A stretch of DNA of 42,689 bases. Origin: a virus. Its lineage: Duplodnaviria > Heunggongvirae > Uroviricota > Caudoviricetes. The DNA lies in the IMG/VR virus record IMGVR_UViG_2923318301_000002; one strand, written 5' to 3'. A program made the translations under genes and the position numbers. The notes under the pieces are model-generated. The model did not search any database. It was not told the origin of the DNA and saw nothing but the letters and a program-made list of their open reading frames with translations. The first letter of the stretch is position 1. Each line of letters starts with the position of its first letter. Below are positions 8,201 through 38,548 of the stretch, piece after piece.

Positions 8201-8751
8201 ATCCTGCGCATCCGGATATTAAACGGGCGCGGCGGCAGGTTATCCACCACCACCGAGGCCAGATACTGCGAGGTGGTTTTGCCCTTAATGGTGATGTCTT
8301 TTTCCGTCACCCAGCCACCATTACGCTGTATCTGAACCAGCAGGCGAACTTCCGACGGATTCCGGTCCCCCTTTGAGGTGGTTTCCACCAGTGCCTGCAC
8401 ACCGAAGGTAAAGCGCAGACGGTCGATGTTTGCAGACGTAATGGTGCGGGTGATCGGCGTGTCATATTTCACTTCCGTACCCAGCACCGTCTCGGAGCCG
8501 GAGGATTCAAACCCCTCCGGCGGTGTCTGCTCCTGCTCACCGGCACGGAACACCACCGTGACACCGGAGATGTTGGTATTCCCCTCAGTGTCCAGCACCG
8601 GCGTACTGTTCAGCAGCACGCTTTTTAATCCATCCACCGGACCTTCAACCGGCCCTTCACTGATGGCGTCTATCACGCTCAGCATCTGGGATGATTTCAG
8701 GTTGTCCTTCGCTTCGCGCGGGGTATGCCCCTTACTGCTGCCTTTACCCAT
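5272..8751 (-). CDS. J: Tail tip host-specificity protein J
   Basis: 1159-aa ORF collinear with lambda gpJ ([22 protein letters not shown]…). Confidence 0.95.
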
Positions 8752-24146: not shown

Positions 24147-24177
24147 TTGCATGAGTTGCCCATCGATATGGGCAGCT

Positions 24178-24639
24178 CTATCTGCACTGCTCATTAATAT
24201 ACTTCTGGGTTCCTTCCAGTTGTTTTTGCATTGTGATCAGCCTCTCTCTGAGGGTGAAATAATCCCGTTCAGCGGTGTCTGCCAGTCGGGGGCTGGTTGC
24301 ATTATCCACGCCGGAGGCGGTGGTGGCTTCACGCACTGACTGACAGACTGCTTTGATGTGCAACCGACGACGACCAGCGGCAACATCAGCGCGCAGAGTT
24401 TCATTTTCAGCTTTCGCATTGGCTAATTCTCTCGAGTACTTTGCATCGAGTGCAGCAACATCACGCTGACGCTGCTGCATGTCAGCGATAGTGGCGATCG
24501 CCTGCTTCAGCTCACTGACTTTTTTATCACGCTGTTCTTTGTAGGCGATGGCGTTATCACGGTAATGATTGACCGCCCACGACAGGCAGACGATGATGCA
24601 GATAACCAAAGCATAAATAATCGCGGCGACTCTGCTCAC
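24178..24639 (-). CDS. Rz: Spanin inner-membrane subunit Rz
   Basis: Matches lambda Rz (…[20 protein letters not shown]…[18 protein letters not shown]); GTG start overlapping R stop (GTGA). Confidence 0.9.
24237..24419 (-). CDS. Rz1: Spanin outer-membrane lipoprotein Rz1 (embedded in Rz, +1 frame)
   Basis: 60-aa ORF with lipobox LVVVGC and PPPPP tract, matches lambda Rz1. Confidence 0.85.
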
Positions 24640-26330: not shown

Positions 26331-27396
26331 TGAATTGTCAAACCAAGTGCAACGATTTTTTGAAGTAAACTTCATAAGGTGTTTTCCAACCTAAACATTT
26401 ACGTGGTCGTAAATTCAGTTTATTGATCACCTGTTGAATATCAACTTCGCTCCACTGATTGATGTCTTGGTGCTTCGGAAAGTATTCACGAAGTAACCCA
26501 TTTGTATTTTCATTCGTTCCCCGTGTCCACGGTTGATGCGGCTCGGGGAAGTAAAATTCTACACCCAGTGCTTCTGTTACCAAACGATGTTGGGCAAATT
26601 CTTTACCACGGTCTGGCGTAATTGACCGCAATATATGTGAATCCAGCAATTCAATCATGGCTTTTTGGACTGCTTCGGCTTTTTTGGCAGGAATTTTCTT
26701 CACCAACTCAAAACGACTTTTGCGTTCCGTCAGCGTCAGCAAACAAGCTCCACCCGCTTTACCCAGTACGGTATCGGCTTCCCAATGTCCAAAGCGACTG
26801 CGATTTTGCGCCGAAATGGGACGGTCGTTCAAATGGTTGGATATCTGAATTTTGCCACGTTTTTCATGATGATTTTTTGTATGCCGTGTTTTGCCTTTGT
26901 GGCGCAGTTTGCGACTGGCTTTGCGTTCGCCTATATCAAACAACCCTGAATAAATACCACGATAAATGGTTGAATAACTAATGGATAATTCAGATTTTTC
27001 CAATTTTAATCGTGCGCTGATTTGTTCGGGCGACCAGTTTTCTGTCAGAAACTTTTCTTGCACCAAATTGAAATATTCAGGCTGCTCTAATTTGCGCTGT
27101 GCTTTGCTATTTTGACGATGCTTCAAATAGCTGTTTTGTGCGTTCGTTGCACTGTAGCTTTCTAGAGCGTGTCGTTTCAGCTCGCGAGAAATGGTGCTGG
27201 AGCTACGTCCCAGTGCTTTGGCAATTTCTGCTTGTTTTTTGCCCTGTGCGAGTAAAATCATTATCTTTTCTCGCTCGTTTATTGTAAGATGTCGGTAGGA
27301 AGTACTCATCATTTGGAAATGGTTTTTGTGTGGAAACAAAATTATATTCTAGTTGATGAGTACTTCTTTTTTTGTTGCACTTGGATTGTAAATTCA
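26331..27396 (-). mobile_element. IS30-family insertion sequence (~1.07 kb)
   Basis: Single transposase ORF flanked by imperfect terminal inverted repeats (left …tgaattgtcaaaccaagtgcaac, right gttgcacttggattgtaaattca); ends uncertain by ±1-2 bp. Confidence 0.7.
26338..27312 (-). CDS. IS30-family transposase
   Basis: N-terminal HTH (…LTINEREKIMILLAQGKKQAEIAKALGRSSSTISRELKR…) and DDE region (…HWEADTV…RGTNENTNGLLR…); start at ATGATG 27312. Confidence 0.85.
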   Translation of the reverse strand: MMSTSYRHLTINEREKIMILLAQGKKQAEIAKALGRSSSTISRELKRHALESYSATNAQNSYLKHRQNSKAQRKLEQPEYFNLVQEKFLTENWSPEQISARLKLEKSELSISYSTIYRGIYSGLFDIGERKASRKLRHKGKTRHTKNHHEKRGKIQISNHLNDRPISAQNRSRFGHWEADTVLGKAGGACLLTLTERKSRFELVKKIPAKKAEAVQKAMIELLDSHILRSITPDRGKEFAQHRLVTEALGVEFYFPEPHQPWTRGTNENTNGLLREYFPKHQDINQWSEVDIQQVINKLNLRPRKCLGWKTPYEVYFKKSLHLV

Positions 27397-27631
27397 GCTC
27401 TTTAAAATACCAGACATGTAACACAGAAAAAACACAAAACCATACCTTAAATAGAAACCTGATCATCAAGCAGATATGCATGGATAAACTACAAGACGAG
27501 ATATAAACCACCCTGCATTTAAATAAACAATAAACAACATCAGAAAAATAATTCTGCTCTATGGTTTATATTCAAAAATATCATTTATACTTTTCAGAAC
27601 ATCACCAGCAAGGCATAAACAAGGAAGCTAA

Positions 27632-27967
27632 ATGAAGTGGATTGTAATTGATACAGTTATCCAGCCATCATGCGGAATATCTTTTTCAGTCATATGGAGT
27701 AAAGTAAAATTAATAATCTGGTATCAATCGGATGCTTTCTTACCTCCTGAAAGTATATTTACACTGACTCACACAGGTATCATGCTCAATAACAAAGTGC
27801 TACCTGTAACCATTTACAACGTAGTACCATTCAATAAAACATTCTGGAATTTAATCAAAAACAGCCAGGAATGCCCTACAAATACAGATAACGTATTGAA
27901 TGAATGCTTTAATAACCGTTGCATTCTGCAAATATGTCCTTATGGACTAAAACAACAAAGTCCATAA
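27632..27967 (+). CDS. Hypothetical protein, AT-rich accessory gene (111 aa, 6 Cys)
   Basis: AAGGAAG RBS 6 nt upstream of ATG; strongly AT-rich relative to the prophage backbone; convergent with late transcription. Confidence 0.45.
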
Positions 27968-28002
27968 GGAGTTTACTCACATCTGACAAAATCAATATAA
28001 AC

Positions 28003-28193
28003 AGCCCCTCCGGAGAGGGGCTGGAGAGTGGCGCTATGTGCCATTGCATGGTGCCGGGTGCCTCCCGGTGAATTCAGTACCAGCACCTGAATCCGCGATT
28101 ATCCCATATACCTACTCGCTGATTACCCCTCCGCACAGGGGGATTCACCATGCGAAATTTTTTAACAAACTTCCCGCCGGCCAGACAATAATC
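28003..28193 (-). repeat. Structured element copy A (candidate ncRNA; paralogue of copy B)
   Basis: Shares with copy B a terminal hairpin AGCCCCTCCGGAGAGGGGCT and conserved blocks (GCATGGTGCC.GG.GCCTCCCGGT.AATTCAG; GGGGGATTCACCATGCGA; TTTTTAACAAA…GCCAGACAAT.ATC); stem partners are conserved while loops differ. Confidence 0.5.
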
Positions 28194-28465
28194 GCCAGCC
28201 TGAATTATGAGCAACGTGGCATTTTACGGGAAAACTGTTTTCTGCAGTAAAAAGGCCCGCCGGAGCGAGCCTGGAAGGATAGCGGTCATGTGATGCCGGT
28301 TTCCCGGTAACTCAGCATCGGTATCTGAGTCAACGTTTTCTCTACTGGGTCATTTCCGATACGTTCCGCCTTCCGGCAGACTTTCATCACGTCAGAAAAT
28401 ATAGCACCCTGAGTAACAGGACAGTACTCAGAATTCAGGAAACTGTGACACATCCTGCACAGAAA

Positions 28466-28663
28466 AGCCCCTCCGGAGAGGGGCTGAAGTATAGCCTAAT
28501 TTCTGTCTGTCGCATGGTGCCAGGGGCCTCCCGGTAAATTCAGCCTGTCTACTGAATTTGCATGTTCTCTGGATCATACACTTTGCCAGATGCCCCGCCG
28601 CTGAGGGGGATTCACCATGCGATGTAATTTTTAACAAATTCTCCGGCAGCCAGACAATCATCA
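28466..28663 (-). repeat. Structured element copy B (candidate ncRNA; paralogue of copy A)
   Basis: As copy A; on the minus strand the terminal hairpin is followed by TTTTCTGTG. Confidence 0.5.
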
Positions 28664-28856
28664 AGCTGTGGAATTGTGAGGTATTTAAAAATTTCAACGG
28701 GTAACTGATACCCTGCTAATCGCCTGATGCTTTCTTTTTCAGCAACGGGAAAGCAACAACCACACACCCGCCACCAAAACACCATCAGACAGCACCGACA
28801 TTATCCGGCTGCTGAAGTCCACCATCACCACCAGAAACAACAGGAGTGCAACCACA

Positions 28857-28900
28857 GCTGCTTAGAAGGCAATTGCTCTGCCCGGCTGAGCTAACAACGC
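28857..28900 (-). other. tRNA-like 5' fragment (acceptor, D arm and anticodon arm with UCU-like anticodon); no T arm or 3' acceptor
   Basis: GCGTTGTTAGCTCAGCCGGGCAGAGCAATTGCCTTCTAAGCAGC folds as the 5' two-thirds of a tRNA; downstream sequence gives no T stem or ACAACGC-CCA. Confidence 0.3.
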
Positions 28901-29000
28901 TGAATACCGATAATGGACCGCCATCGGGGACCCGCCCCCGCACCAACAACCCTGTTATCGTGTCGTCTGCTCTTCCTGATAAGCTAATGGCGGTTTGTGA

Positions 29001-29076
29001 TGGTGGCCCTTGCTGGATTTGAACCAGCGACCTGGCGATTATGAGTCGCTCGCTCTCACCACTGAGCTAAAGGGCC
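29001..29076 (-). tRNA. tRNA with CAU anticodon (Met or Ile2/lysidine type; ileZ-like of lambdoid phages)
   Basis: 76-nt cloverleaf folded by hand: acceptor GGCCCTT/AAGGGCC, D arm GCTC…GAGC, anticodon loop CTCATAA, T arm GCTGG-TTCAAAT-CCAGC, 3' CCA encoded. Confidence 0.9.
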
Positions 29077-29113
29077 GGGAGTAGAATAATAACGGTCCGT
29101 AACTAATTCCGCA

Positions 29114-29137
29114 ATAAAAAACCCGCTCGGCGGCGGG
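29114..29137 (-). terminator. tR'-like intrinsic terminator downstream of the late promoter
   Basis: Hairpin cccgccgccgagcggg followed on the minus strand by TTTTTTAT, ~45-50 nt downstream of the predicted −10. Confidence 0.6.
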
Positions 29138-29186
29138 TTGTAGAAACTCTTCTAACGTCAGGCATAAAAAGCCCATTATTATGACG

Positions 29187-29214
29187 AATTTACCACAGAT
29201 TCCGGAAAAATCAA
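29187..29214 (-). promoter_or_regulatory. Late promoter pR'-like (−35 TTGATT, 16-nt spacer, −10 TAAATT) immediately downstream of the Q-like gene
   Basis: Sigma-70-like hexamers on the minus strand; −10 TAAATT is the same hexamer I recall for lambda pR'. Confidence 0.45.
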
Positions 29215-29219
29215 CCTTG

Positions 29220-30041
29220 TTACCTAGTTACCTTTTTTAACTGCCGCTCAGCCCATGCTTCTTCAATATCAAACCGGGTCACCAGCGCATCATAGAATTT
29301 CTTAACTGTTTTTTCCCATGACGCGCGTGTTATCTGGTTTGTCACCTCGCATATAGCATTAAATGTCTCCGTTGATGGTAGTCTTTCATAGCCACGACCA
29401 CCACAACGCTGGCAGTCTCTGATAACAGGCATACCACGTTTTACCGACTCTTCACGATGAATGGCGACACCACGCCCACGGCAATCCTTACAGGCGGTGG
29501 AAACCTCACCCTTTCCGCCACACTCCGGACAGGCAACTTTTACCACCTCCCTGACTTTTTTCCATTCTTCCCAGTAAGACGAATACACACCTTTCGTACA
29601 CTTTGCCCATACCGGCGGCTTACCATCCGGATACTGGACCTTGTTTGTAAAAACTACGCTTTCAATAAATTTTTCCCCATAGCAACAAGGGCACTGCTTT
29701 TTACTCGCTGCGCTGCGGGCATAATCCTCAAAAGCGTACGAAGCCATAATGCGCATCACTAACGGTTTTATTTCTGCCGGAAGTTTTCTCAACGCCGCAA
29801 CACGATCGCACCGACTGAGTGCATAATCTGCCAGTAATTCTGTTGCCCGCGCCCTGTCATTCATACTGATGCCCATTTTCCCCAGGAACGCAGAAAACCC
29901 CATCTCAGCCCGATTCTGTGTCATGCCCTGCGCGGCCATCACATCAGTGATACTCAGCGCATCTTTTGACGTTGAGGCCGATGCATCGGTCAGGCCAGGG
30001 GATTTTGGGGAGTAGTATTTCGGTAAATCTTCCAGTTTCAT
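29220..30041 (-). CDS. Putative late-gene antiterminator (Q-position) with four DnaJ-type CxxCxGxG zinc-finger motifs
   Basis: 273-aa ORF after rusA (ATGA overlap) and before the pR'/tR'/tRNA block; motifs CPCCYGEK, CPECGGKG, CKDCRGRG, CQRCGGRG; function inferred from synteny. Confidence 0.5.
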   Translation of the reverse strand: MKLEDLPKYYSPKSPGLTDASASTSKDALSITDVMAAQGMTQNRAEMGFSAFLGKMGISMNDRARATELLADYALSRCDRVAALRKLPAEIKPLVMRIMASYAFEDYARSAASKKQCPCCYGEKFIESVVFTNKVQYPDGKPPVWAKCTKGVYSSYWEEWKKVREVVKVACPECGGKGEVSTACKDCRGRGVAIHREESVKRGMPVIRDCQRCGGRGYERLPSTETFNAICEVTNQITRASWEKTVKKFYDALVTRFDIEEAWAERQLKKVTR

Positions 30042-30418
30042 TTTTTGACCTGCTCTTCATGCATTATGGGGTAAATCTTCACCCCCAGACGTCCACCAGA
30101 TACTGGCTGACCACGAACGATATTGATTTCATCAAACTGCTCATCGTCCATTAACACTCCCGCATGCGTCAGCGCATCCAGCGGTGCTTTCAGGATATTG
30201 TCCAGGTCGCGACGACGCTTATCCGGTGGCTCTGCAATCACCTTTATCGCCAGCCTTCCGGACAGGTTTAATTTCAGCCGCTGCTGGCGAACAATTAGCG
30301 CCACATCACGGCGATAACGCTTTCCGGCCTCCGAGATGAAATACGTATTGCCATGACGTCGCCAGTAGGTATTCACCGTCGGCGGGTAAGGCAAAACAAA
30401 TTCTATGCGTTCAGTCAT
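30038..30418 (-). CDS. rusA: Holliday junction resolvase RusA
   Basis: 126-aa ORF with RusA-like motifs (…PDKRRRDLDNILKAPLDALTHAGVLMDDEQ…). Confidence 0.85.
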   Translation of the reverse strand: MTERIEFVLPYPPTVNTYWRRHGNTYFISEAGKRYRRDVALIVRQQRLKLNLSGRLAIKVIAEPPDKRRRDLDNILKAPLDALTHAGVLMDDEQFDEINIVRGQPVSGGRLGVKIYPIMHEEQVKK

Positions 30419-31924: not shown

Positions 31925-32080
31925 TTACTCCTCAGGTTCGTAAGCTGTGAAGACAGCGACCTCCGTCTGGCCGGTTCGGATTCGTACCTCGCAGAGGTCT
32001 TTCCTCGTTACCAGTGCCGTCACAATGACGGTTAAACAGATGACGATCAGGGCGATTAACATCGCCTTTTGCTGCTTCAT
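31925..32080 (-). CDS. hokD: Hok/Gef family type I toxin (HokD/RelF-like)
   Basis: 51-aa ORF MKQQKAMLIALIVICLTVIVTALVTRKDLCEVRIRTGQTEVAVFTAYEPEE matches remembered HokD; an in-frame upstream extension and a structured leader are present. Confidence 0.85.
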   Translation of the reverse strand: MKQQKAMLIALIVICLTVIVTALVTRKDLCEVRIRTGQTEVAVFTAYEPEE

Positions 32081-32339
32081 AGCCTGCTTCTCCTTGCCTT
32101 TCGGCACGTAAGAGGCTAACCTAGATTTGCCGTTCATAGATTGAGCCTCAGATTAATGTTAAGCGTCTTGCAGGACGCGTAATGTTAACTGGGGCTTTTC
32201 TCTATCTGCCTTTTGGTGTTCATGCCTGAGACAGATAGCCTCAAGCACCCGCAGTCATTCTACTTAACTAAGATTTCCCCGCAAACCGTTTTTGTCCGGC
32301 ACAGTAAATATCCAACTAAACCAATGGCGTTCGCTGTAT

Positions 32340-38132: not shown

Positions 38133-38190
38133 TTTCTGGTGACGTTTGGCGGTATCAGTTTTACTCCGTGACTGCTCTGCCGCCCTTTTT
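38133..38190 (+). ncRNA. dicF: DicF-like Hfq-dependent sRNA (cell-division inhibitor RNA)
   Basis: tttctggtgacgtttggcggtatcagttttactccgtgactgctctgccgcccttttt matches remembered DicF, including the terminator hairpin and U-tail; immediately upstream of dicB. Confidence 0.7.
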
Positions 38191-38359
38191 AAAGTGAATT
38201 TTGTGATGCGGTGAATGCGGCTAAGCGCACGCGGAACAGTTAAAACCAAAAACAGTGTTATGGGTGGATTCTCTGTATCCGGCGTTAATTGTTAACTGGT
38301 TAACGTCACCTGGAGGCACCAGGCACCGCATCACAAAACTCATTGTTGAGGGCGCGATA

Positions 38360-38548
38360 ATGAAAACGTTATTACCAAACGTTAATACGTCTGAAGGTTG
38401 TTTTGAAATTGGTGTCACTATCAGTAATCCTGTATTTACTGAAGATGCCATTAACAAAAGAAAACACGAACGGGAGTTATTAAATAAAGTATGCATTGTT
38501 TCAATGCTGGCCCGTTTACGTCTGATGCCAAAAGGATGTGCACAATGA
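38360..38548 (+). CDS. dicB: Cell division inhibitor DicB
   Basis: 62-aa ORF MKTLLPNVNTSEGCFEIGVTISNPVFTEDAINKRK… near-identical to remembered Qin DicB; ATGA-coupled to ydfD. Confidence 0.85.
   Translation: MKTLLPNVNTSEGCFEIGVTISNPVFTEDAINKRKHERELLNKVCIVSMLARLRLMPKGCAQ

Follow-up and report, generated by a model that had tools for sequence, protein, structure and literature searches.

An array of STnc100-family small RNA genes in the Q-to-lysis accessory slot of a lambdoid prophage

The STnc100 family (RF02076) of small RNAs (sRNAs) has been in Rfam for years. We analyzed a tandem array of genes of this family in the virus record IMGVR_UViG_2923318301_000002 of IMG/VR. This stretch of 42,689 nt, referred to here as the window, is a lambdoid prophage whose late region is transcribed on the minus strand. 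The array lies between the antiterminator gene Q and the lysis genes. An earlier note on this DNA, made from the sequence alone, had described two of its members, designated copies A and B below.

The family has been documented experimentally in enterohemorrhagic Escherichia coli (EHEC), enteropathogenic E. coli (EPEC), and Salmonella (PMC5331693, PMC4104026, PMC7873438, PMC8550237, PMC12711010, bioRxiv 10.64898/2026.05.13.724894). In strain EDL933, 11 annotated STnc100 copies are transcribed in uninduced cells at up to ~1900 reads per kilobase per million (RPKM), and STnc100_4 was confirmed by Northern blotting (PMC5331693). EcOnc27 of strain Sakai, which is sRNA103 of EDL933, is a copy located directly downstream of stx2B; it is crosslinked to Hfq and was confirmed by Northern blotting (PMC4104026, PMC7873438, PMC12711010; the last two cite Tree 2014 and Gruber & Sperandio 2015). 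Overexpression of sRNA103 raises the transcript levels of fimZ and espA (PMC7873438). Such sRNAs are a regular feature of the accessory ("moron") site downstream of the Q-antiterminated promoter pR', as observed in at least eight Sakai prophages (Tree et al., PMC4104026). In Salmonella LT2, a signal of RpoD was detected at STnc100 promoters by chromatin immunoprecipitation with exonuclease digestion (PMC10794520). STnc100 was also detected in outer-membrane vesicles of Shiga toxin-producing E. coli (PMC12370729), and a machine-learning study ranked single-nucleotide polymorphisms of the copy linked to stx2 among the best predictors of hemolytic-uremic syndrome (PMC12711010).

PasD1 and PasD2 of EPEC are ~172-nt RNAs detected by Hfq RIL-seq (sequencing of interacting RNAs after their ligation) and Northern blotting, with the seed UGUGAG immediately before the terminator (PMC8550237). 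A 2026 preprint (10.64898/2026.05.13.724894) concludes that PasD and STnc100 have a common ancestor and that STnc100 matches are frequent in the flanks of prophages and phages.

Three tandem genes of the STnc100 family

The whole window was scanned against Rfam 15, in which the gathering score of STnc100 is 47 bits. Copy B matched RF02076 at 28457-28650 on the minus strand with 138 bits (E 1.8e-30), and copy A at 27993-28181 on the same strand with 132.5 bits (E 4.6e-29). Both alignments span all 206 positions of the model, with scores roughly three times the gathering score, and by their E values the matches are far beyond chance. The elements had been called candidate novel RNAs that match no known family; this claim is therefore wrong, and the covariance-model search proposed in the earlier note, run here against Rfam, matched both copies. 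A covariance model (CM) of our own, built from 54 family members, gave scores of 166 bits for copy A and 124.8 bits for copy B. We regard the membership of A and B in STnc100 as close to certain. The elements are structured non-coding RNA genes of an already catalogued family, not of a new one, and since STnc100 is known and was found in its usual place, the finding is already known. A weak match of our CM at 24151-24307 on the minus strand (10.6 bits, E 0.36) was taken as chance.

The earlier observation of two copies was incomplete because a third copy, C, sits between A and B. The array consists of three tandem head-to-tail STnc100-family genes, of which A and B are canonical and C is diverged:

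~28620 to ~28460, minus strand: copy B, STnc100-family sRNA gene (predicted RNA; Rfam, own CM, minimum free energy [MFE] fold, and terminator scan)
28248-28392, minus strand: copy C, diverged family member between A and B (own CM, 45.2 bits, E 4e-9)
~28153 to ~27996, minus strand: copy A, STnc100-family sRNA gene (predicted RNA; Rfam, own CM, and MFE fold)

The two minus-strand copies with shared blocks and conserved pairing described earlier were confirmed by repeat finding, the Rfam alignments, and the MFE folds. Blocks of 30-35 nt are shared by A and B at 83-91% identity (28046-28077 with 28512-28543, 28126-28155 with 28593-28622, and 28159-28193 with 28628-28662), and their terminator palindromes are 93% identical. 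The MFE fold of copy A has -69.8 kcal/mol and that of copy B -62.5 kcal/mol, each with a z score of -3.0. The long-range closing helix (P1) GCAUGGUG/CACCAUGC was found in the Rfam alignment and in the independent MFE folds of both copies, where it comprises 8 bp. All consensus helices of STnc100 are present, namely the closing helix, CCCCU/AGGGG (P2), UUCAG/CUGAA (P4), CCGGG/CCCGG (P5), and the terminator; they include every helix listed in the earlier note (the long-range pair, ATTCAG/CTGAAT, CCGGG, and the terminator hairpin). Two finer points of that description also held: the loops of the UUCAG/CUGAA hairpin, present in both copies, are unrelated between A and B, and the difference between CCGGG-AGGCA-CCCGG in A and CCGGG-AGGCC-CCUGG in B is a G-U-compatible change. 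The terminator hairpin AGCCCCUC-UCCG-GAGGGGCU is followed by U-rich sequence in the terminator scan.

In copy B, the helices P1, P2, P4, and P5 form the core, the linker is GACAGACAGAAAUUAGGCUAUACUUC, and the stem of the terminator lies at 28485-28466; the predicted 5' end of copy B is the G of GCAUGGUG (~28620), placed through the aligned 5' end of PasD1 from RNA sequencing. In copy A, the linker AAUGGCACAUAGCGCCACUCUCC is followed by a terminator stem at 28023-28002 and an interrupted U tract, UUUAUAUU. The primers for quantitative PCR used in the vesicle study (PMC12370729) match copy A exactly.

Against the Rfam STnc100 model, copy C reached 30 bits (E 3.6e-4) at 28246-28421, short of the gathering score (47). 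Its MFE fold (z -2.5) has the same architecture as A and B, with P1 GUGAUG/CAUCAC, P2 with a GGAA loop, P4 ACUCAG/CUGAGU, and P5 CCGG-GAAA-CCGG, followed by the linker AUGACCGCUAUCCUUCC and a terminator stem at 28272-28253 that also falls within the repeat family D1 (28250-28276). Every helix is kept via compensatory changes. From A to C, double substitutions turn AUGGUG/CACCAU into GUGAUG/CAUCAC in the closing helix and AUUCAG/CUGAAU into ACUCAG/CUGAGU in the hairpin. A variant 86% identical to copy C is the middle member of other triple arrays.

The hairpins covary across homologues. A pattern scan of IMG/VR, with a pattern that fixes the 5' arm and P2, yielded 139 anchored copies, 82 of them unique. 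Pairs were counted for the Rfam-type structure on a MAFFT alignment of 54 distinct RNAs, and controls were prepared by sliding the 3' partners by 1-3 columns. In this set, 96.5% of the cells were paired, compared with 39-53% in the slid controls. Double changes occurred at nine pairs, six among the eight pairs of the UUCAG/CUGAA hairpin and three in the terminator; in that hairpin, for example, one pair is G-C in 29 RNAs and A-U in 24, and another is A-U in 43, G-C in 7, and U-A in 3. The closing helix and the two G+C-rich hairpins varied only by G-U-compatible changes, and the 54-RNA set is unable to test them because the collecting pattern fixes the 5' arm. A wider family set, with copy-C types, PasD, and the dicF-dicB elements described below among its 81 distinct sequences, was 97.3% paired, compared with 35-45% in the slid controls. 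Double changes were found in 28 of its 34 pairs, including six of the eight closing-helix pairs, with the exchanges G-C/A-U, C-G/U-A, A-U/G-C, and U-A/C-G. Compensatory substitutions across homologues, which the earlier note had proposed to look for, are thus seen in both sets. RNAalifold, run on the MAFFT alignment, paired CCCC of P2 with GGGA of P5 in place of the two local hairpins; the Rfam-type local hairpins are preferred because they are kept in all subfamilies with compensatory changes.

The ORFs (open reading frames) overlapping copies A and B are unrelated to each other, and a Pfam search of the ORFs overlapping the elements gave no match. No conserved reading frame was found across the 82 unique homologues, as all six frames are interrupted in some member; the shortest stop-free run through the core was 4-20 codons over the six frames. 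The view taken earlier, that differing ORFs argue for RNA rather than protein, is borne out. RefSeq and GenBank contain "hypothetical protein" or pseudo coding sequences (CDSs) over STnc100 and PasD genes, for example, B7R44_RS25095, E2348C_RS28255, and several phage records, and the counterpart of such a RefSeq CDS in the window is located at 28038-28250 on the plus strand. The calls over STnc100 and PasD genes are probably spurious.

Putative promoters, modular 3' ends, and distribution

Promoter-like elements on the minus strand were read from the sequence upstream of each copy:

28657-28652 and 28633-28628, minus strand: copy B, -35 TTGTCT, 18-nt spacer, and extended -10 TGtTAAAAA (the second coordinates are those of the hexamer)
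28406-28398, minus strand: copy C, extended -10 TGcTATATT
28188-28183 and 28164-28159, minus strand: copy A, -35 TTGTCT, 18-nt spacer, and extended -10 TGtTAAAAA (second coordinates as above)

The promoter block of copy A lies within the conserved repeat D2, which is common to copy B. In 40 unique upstream regions of homologues, TTGnnn and TA(A/G)AA(A/G) are separated by 17-18 nt that vary in sequence; TGn often precedes the second motif, and the -10 hexamer stops 5-7 nt short of the conserved GCAUGG. The estimated 5' end of PasD1, position 1060260 of NC_011601 (PMC8550237, Table S6), aligns with the G of GCAUGGUG. From these features, we infer a separate sigma-70-like promoter for each copy. 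Within the Rfam STnc100 model, which contains a conserved block at 1-29, the first 25-30 positions are probably promoter DNA and not RNA. Promoter-like sequences on the plus strand (TTAACA-16-GACAAT at 28162-28189 and 28631-28658) were attributed to chance, with a count of 2 compared with 1.7 in shuffled sequence. These sites are the reverse complement of the minus-strand promoter block, and the -10-like hexamer is without its final T in other variants.

The terminator scan identified intrinsic-terminator-like stems on the minus strand at 28023-28002, 28272-28253, and 28485-28466. The earlier note had the elements transcribed under Q antitermination. One part of this stands, as Q-modified polymerase would read through the array; the statement is only partly right, since each copy has its own promoter-like element and expression therefore need not depend on Q. 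Homologues are abundant in uninduced cells, and RpoD is found at STnc100 promoters of Salmonella (PMC5331693, PMC10794520, PMC8550237), which also speaks against such dependence. Judging from the promoters and the expression of homologues in uninduced cells, the RNAs of the array are most likely made in the lysogen.

The family is modular, with a conserved multi-helix core, a hypervariable single-stranded linker, and a terminator. At least 12 unrelated linker types, each near-invariant within its type, were found 3' of the closing helix, and the same core occurs with them in different combinations; some copies carry a PasD-type terminator. The linker of copy A is of the commonest type, and those of A, B, and C are all single-stranded in the MFE folds. 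Because the PasD seed sits in the equivalent position, the linker is the best candidate for the target-recognition region, a probable seed. If the three different linkers of the array act as seeds, the three tandem genes would have three specificities.

Among 5426 complete E. coli genomes, 2862 had matches to the 721-bp region of the array, at 8216 places in total; in 655 genomes, 80% or more of the array was covered by a single place, many at 100% identity, and the only RefSeq annotation under the 721-bp array is a "hypothetical protein." Copy A matched 350 phage records, mostly Stx1- and Stx2-converting phages. A 15-base pattern (GCATGGTGAATCCNCC) searched over 596 Gb of contigs gave only chance matches in unrelated phyla, as the pattern is too short. 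Head-to-tail arrays of two to four family genes with a different linker in each member are common in the prophage contigs of IMG/VR. One of them (L174, 6985-7931, plus strand) contains four copies at a spacing of ~265 nt; others are located at L233 11411-11825, L239 9152-9603, and L199 5026-5606, and the spacing over all arrays is ~260-470 nt.

Copies A and B share with the Rfam STnc100 family the prophage location, the presence of several copies per genome, which is normal for the family, and all consensus helices. No essential difference from the family was found for A and B, whereas copy C and the dicF-dicB element are below the threshold. In the Stx2a phage LC645409, a family member lies 104 nt downstream of stx2B; it is equated with EcOnc27/sRNA103 by position only. 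This copy shares with copy A the 5' core and an identical P5, 3' arm, linker AAUGGCACAUAGCGCCACUCUCC, and terminator but differs in the middle variable region. EcOnc27/sRNA103 occupies the same slot, downstream of a cargo gene and upstream of the lysis genes; here, by contrast, there is no stx, and the upstream neighbor is a DUF3927 gene.

With PasD1/PasD2 of EPEC E2348/69 (homologues of EcOnc13), the array shares the synteny from Q through DUF3927 to the sRNA, the core (GCAUGGUGAAUCC..., the P4 hairpin, and GGGAGGC), and the overall architecture. PasD differs in being itself below the Rfam threshold (37.7 and 41.4 bits) and without the full 3' half of P5. The PasD-specific 3' region (CCUUGUGAGUUCUGGCUGCGCAUG, with the seed UGUGAG) had no match in the window at up to three mismatches. 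Copies A to C are therefore not PasD1 or PasD2 themselves: the core is common, but the PasD seed and terminator are not in the window, and the RNAs are related only. IpeX of the K-12 prophage DLP12 (~167 nt, same slot) was considered a possible family member. This was not borne out, as our CM gave no match at E up to 1 in K-12 573000-579500, the Q-to-lysis region of DLP12.

The anti-sRNAs AsxR and AgvB have the same moron-site neighborhood and are convergent partners of STnc100-type sRNAs in the "dyads" of EHEC (PMC4104026). In the window, by contrast, the convergent element is a protein gene annotated as IraM, and the arrangement is a head-to-tail triple array, not a dyad. Neither AsxR (RF02703) nor AgvB (RF02702) had a match in the window at the gathering threshold, or in 27300-29300 at E up to 10.

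Genomic setting and a core copy between DicF and dicB

The array is seated in the accessory slot between Q, pR', the tRNA, and DUF3927 on one side and the lysis cassette on the other. The position downstream of Q, pR'/tR', and the tRNA given in the earlier note agrees with the evidence from ORFs, tRNA prediction, Pfam, and RefSeq. The neighboring features are as follows:

30038-30418, minus strand: RusA, late-region gene 5' of Q
29220-30041, minus strand: Q antiterminator (Pfam PF03589 Antiterm, E 1.2e-54; RefSeq "antitermination protein")
29214-29187, minus strand: pR'-like promoter, TTGATT-16-TAAATT, read from the sequence, 6 nt past the Q stop codon
29139-29120, minus strand: stem of a tR'-like terminator (terminator scan), directly downstream of Q (pR'/tR' region, 29113-29214)
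29001-29076, minus strand: tRNA with anticodon CAU, between tR' and the DUF3927 ORF (Rfam tRNA, 72.5 bits)
28739-28855, minus strand: DUF3927 ORF of 38 amino acids, adjoining the array upstream (Pfam PF13064, E 5.8e-11; RefSeq at an identical locus)
27632-27967, plus strand: convergent gene, IraM anti-adapter according to RefSeq annotation of a 100%-identical locus, with its 3' end towards the copy A terminator
26338-27339, minus strand: IS30-type transposase (HTH_38 and rve domains), between the IraM-like gene and the lysis cassette

The putative promoter at 29214-29187 is called pR'-like for its apparent likeness to lambda pR'. Together, the pR'-like and tR'-like elements would yield a ~65-nt constitutive transcript, analogous to lambda 6S RNA and StxS; the region 29113-29214 on the minus strand has only weak, sub-threshold Rfam matches (Trp_leader, 25.7 bits; isrK, 14 bits). 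The tRNA is assigned as tRNA-Met by ARAGORN and, for an identical gene, as tRNA-Ile by PGAP; the latter label would imply a lysidine-modified CAU. The array is flanked by Q, RusA, tRNA, holin, and lysozyme genes, a prophage location as in the STnc100 family. In strain M217 (NZ_AP019189), which carries the identical array at 2776426-2777146, the same locus runs on into the holin, lysozyme, and Rz-type lysis genes in RefSeq annotation. The IS30-type transposase is not present at the M217 locus, which is identical over the 721-nt array. A Pfam search gave no match for the gene annotated as IraM. The distance from the 3' end of this gene to the terminator stem of copy A is 35 nt, and this terminator could serve both transcripts.

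Elsewhere in the window, a sok antitoxin RNA, part of a hok/sok-type locus, was detected at 32075-32250 on the minus strand (RF01794, 112.4 bits), and hokD is annotated by RefSeq in the M217 prophage region, ~3.2 kb from the array. An ALIL pseudoknot at 282-398 on the plus strand (RF01497, 120.2 bits) is a frameshift element of the IS3 family, representing a second insertion sequence (IS) in the window.

A further family element was found in the stretch that separates DicF (38134-38185) from the dicB start codon (38361):

38203-38333, plus strand: STnc100 core without promoter or terminator (own CM, 46.6 bits, E 1.9e-9; match, 38206-38373)

This element matched the Rfam STnc100 model over positions 21-154 with 38.8 bits (E 8e-7), below the gathering score. 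It shares with the array copies the core architecture, the motifs GGUGAAU and UCACCNGGAGGCACCNGGCACC, and compensatory changes in P1 (AUGCGGUG/CACCGCAU), P4 (GGCGUUAA/UUAACGUC), and P5 (CCUGG/CCAGG). Unlike them, it lacks both a promoter and a terminator of its own, lies within an mRNA, upstream of dicB or other ORFs, and has a closing helix extended to ~26 bp in its MFE fold (z -4.9). K-12 MG1655 carries this element as well (~1649455-1649622). In IMG/VR, 89 unique variants were found, preceded by a DicF-like terminator and followed by varied ORFs. The core thus also occurs outside free-standing sRNA genes. A 72-nt form of DicF, with a 3' end produced by RNase III, has been reported (PMC5069750, citing Faubladier 1990). 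Counted from the DicF 5' end, this 3' end would fall at ~38204, inside the ~26-bp closing helix, whose predicted strands are 38187-38213 and 38323-38350. No literature link between STnc100 and the dicF-dicB spacer was found in open-access text.

Competing explanations and meaning

We consider it likely that the elements are tandem STnc100-family genes and, most likely, genes for Hfq-associated trans-acting base-pairing sRNAs made in the lysogen. Each gene would consist of its own sigma-70-type promoter, a multi-branched core of ~110 nt closed by GCAUGGUG/CACCAUGC, a linker, and an intrinsic terminator. The linker, of 17-26 nt, single-stranded, and differing between copies, would be the target-selecting seed next to the terminator, and the conserved core would act as a stabilizing or scaffold domain. 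On induction, Q-modified polymerase would read through the three terminators, as expected from established lambda biology. A mechanism through seed and Hfq, drawn by analogy with the homologues, is one that we favor by a small margin over its absence.

Several points weigh against this explanation. Hfq-binding sRNAs usually have stronger U tracts than those that follow the terminators of A (UUUAUAUU) and B (UUUUCUG), which are short or interrupted. For copies A to C, discrete transcripts, Hfq binding, and the position of the seed are extrapolated from homologues. For sRNA103, the reported effects are limited to changes in fimZ and espA levels on overexpression (PMC7873438), and a direct-pairing target has been validated for no STnc100-type member. 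A plain base-pairing sRNA would not usually have so large a conserved structured core, which hints at another activity. As to the covariation, the 81-sequence alignment was fitted to the model, and its counts represent a few subfamily-level events, not many independent ones; the 54-sequence set was gathered by a pattern fixing the 5' arm and P2.

Among the alternatives, a cis role in the late operon is unlikely but survives best. The elements would be processing sites and successive terminators or insulators, which keep read-through from pR' or elsewhere away from the lysis genes in the lysogen; they might also be RNase III entry points that affect how stable the late transcript is. The conserved core would then be a processing signal, not an sRNA body. 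Three intrinsic terminators stand in a row on the late-operon strand between tR' and the lysis genes, and in the dicF-dicB spacer a core with neither promoter nor terminator lies inside an operon, where its predicted ~26-bp helix coincides with the RNase III cut reported for 72-nt DicF (PMC5069750). However, each moron-site copy has its own conserved promoter-like element, and homologues accumulate in uninduced cells as discrete Hfq-bound RNAs (PMC5331693, PMC4104026, PMC8550237). Moreover, the 8-bp closing helix of A and B is too short for a classical RNase III site, and the hypervariable linker, strict within each type, suits target recognition better than a terminator role.

That the elements encode small proteins, either a leaderless peptide from the AUG of GCAUGGUG or the antisense hypothetical ORFs of RefSeq, is very improbable. 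An AUG at RNA position 3 does open a frame (MVNPPxRRG...) that runs for 14-50 codons in various copies, 25 amino acids in A and 14 in B; RefSeq has pseudo or hypothetical CDSs under the elements; and some EDL933 copies carry ribosome footprints, with ribosomal coverage values up to 3.2 (PMC5331693). Past the first nine codons, which coincide with conserved helices, the peptides nevertheless differ wholly in sequence and length, and the variation at codon 6, which falls within a hairpin loop, changes the amino acid (V, E, Q, K, or M). Substitutions obey base-pairing rules, not codon periodicity. Protein coding on either strand was rejected on these grounds and because neither a frame open across homologues nor a Pfam match was found.

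Equally improbable is the view of the copies as duplicates in decay, derived from a single ancestral sRNA gene, with one or none of the three functional, as might be read from the sub-threshold score of copy C, the imperfect U tracts of A and B, and the IS elements of a prophage that looks partly defective: the identical 721-bp array recurs at 100% identity in many unrelated strains, with at least 80% of it in 655 genomes, copy C keeps every helix by compensatory changes and has a conserved variant in other arrays, and the promoter-like element and terminator are intact in all three copies.

Beyond the reading as tandem sRNA genes, we put forward, tentatively and with more doubt than belief, that the conserved four-helix core is an autonomous, mobile RNA module and not merely the body of one sRNA. 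At the moron site, the core may come with a promoter of its own, an exchangeable 3' cassette for the seed, and a terminator, often in arrays of two to four. In the dicF-dicB spacer, RNase III appears to act at the extended closing helix of the core to generate 72-nt DicF.

The annotation itself is routine, as copies A and B receive the label STnc100 in any Infernal/Rfam pass, such as that of Bakta. We treat copy C, the promoters, the cassette-like 3' ends, and the dicF-dicB relative as leads and not as findings. The design of experiments could draw on a fixed core with swapped 3' linkers, arrays that include a below-threshold type, and a core at the dicBF RNase III site. The importance is modest: STnc100-type sRNAs adjoin Shiga toxin genes, and the family is pathogen-associated, abundant, and functionally obscure. 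If the core is a mobile module, it could be a platform for processing, stability, or protein binding that controls, for example, the release or half-life of the 3' seed RNA, and phages would shuffle it between contexts. The family would then be larger than Rfam annotation shows, because copy C and the dicF-dicB elements lie below the threshold.

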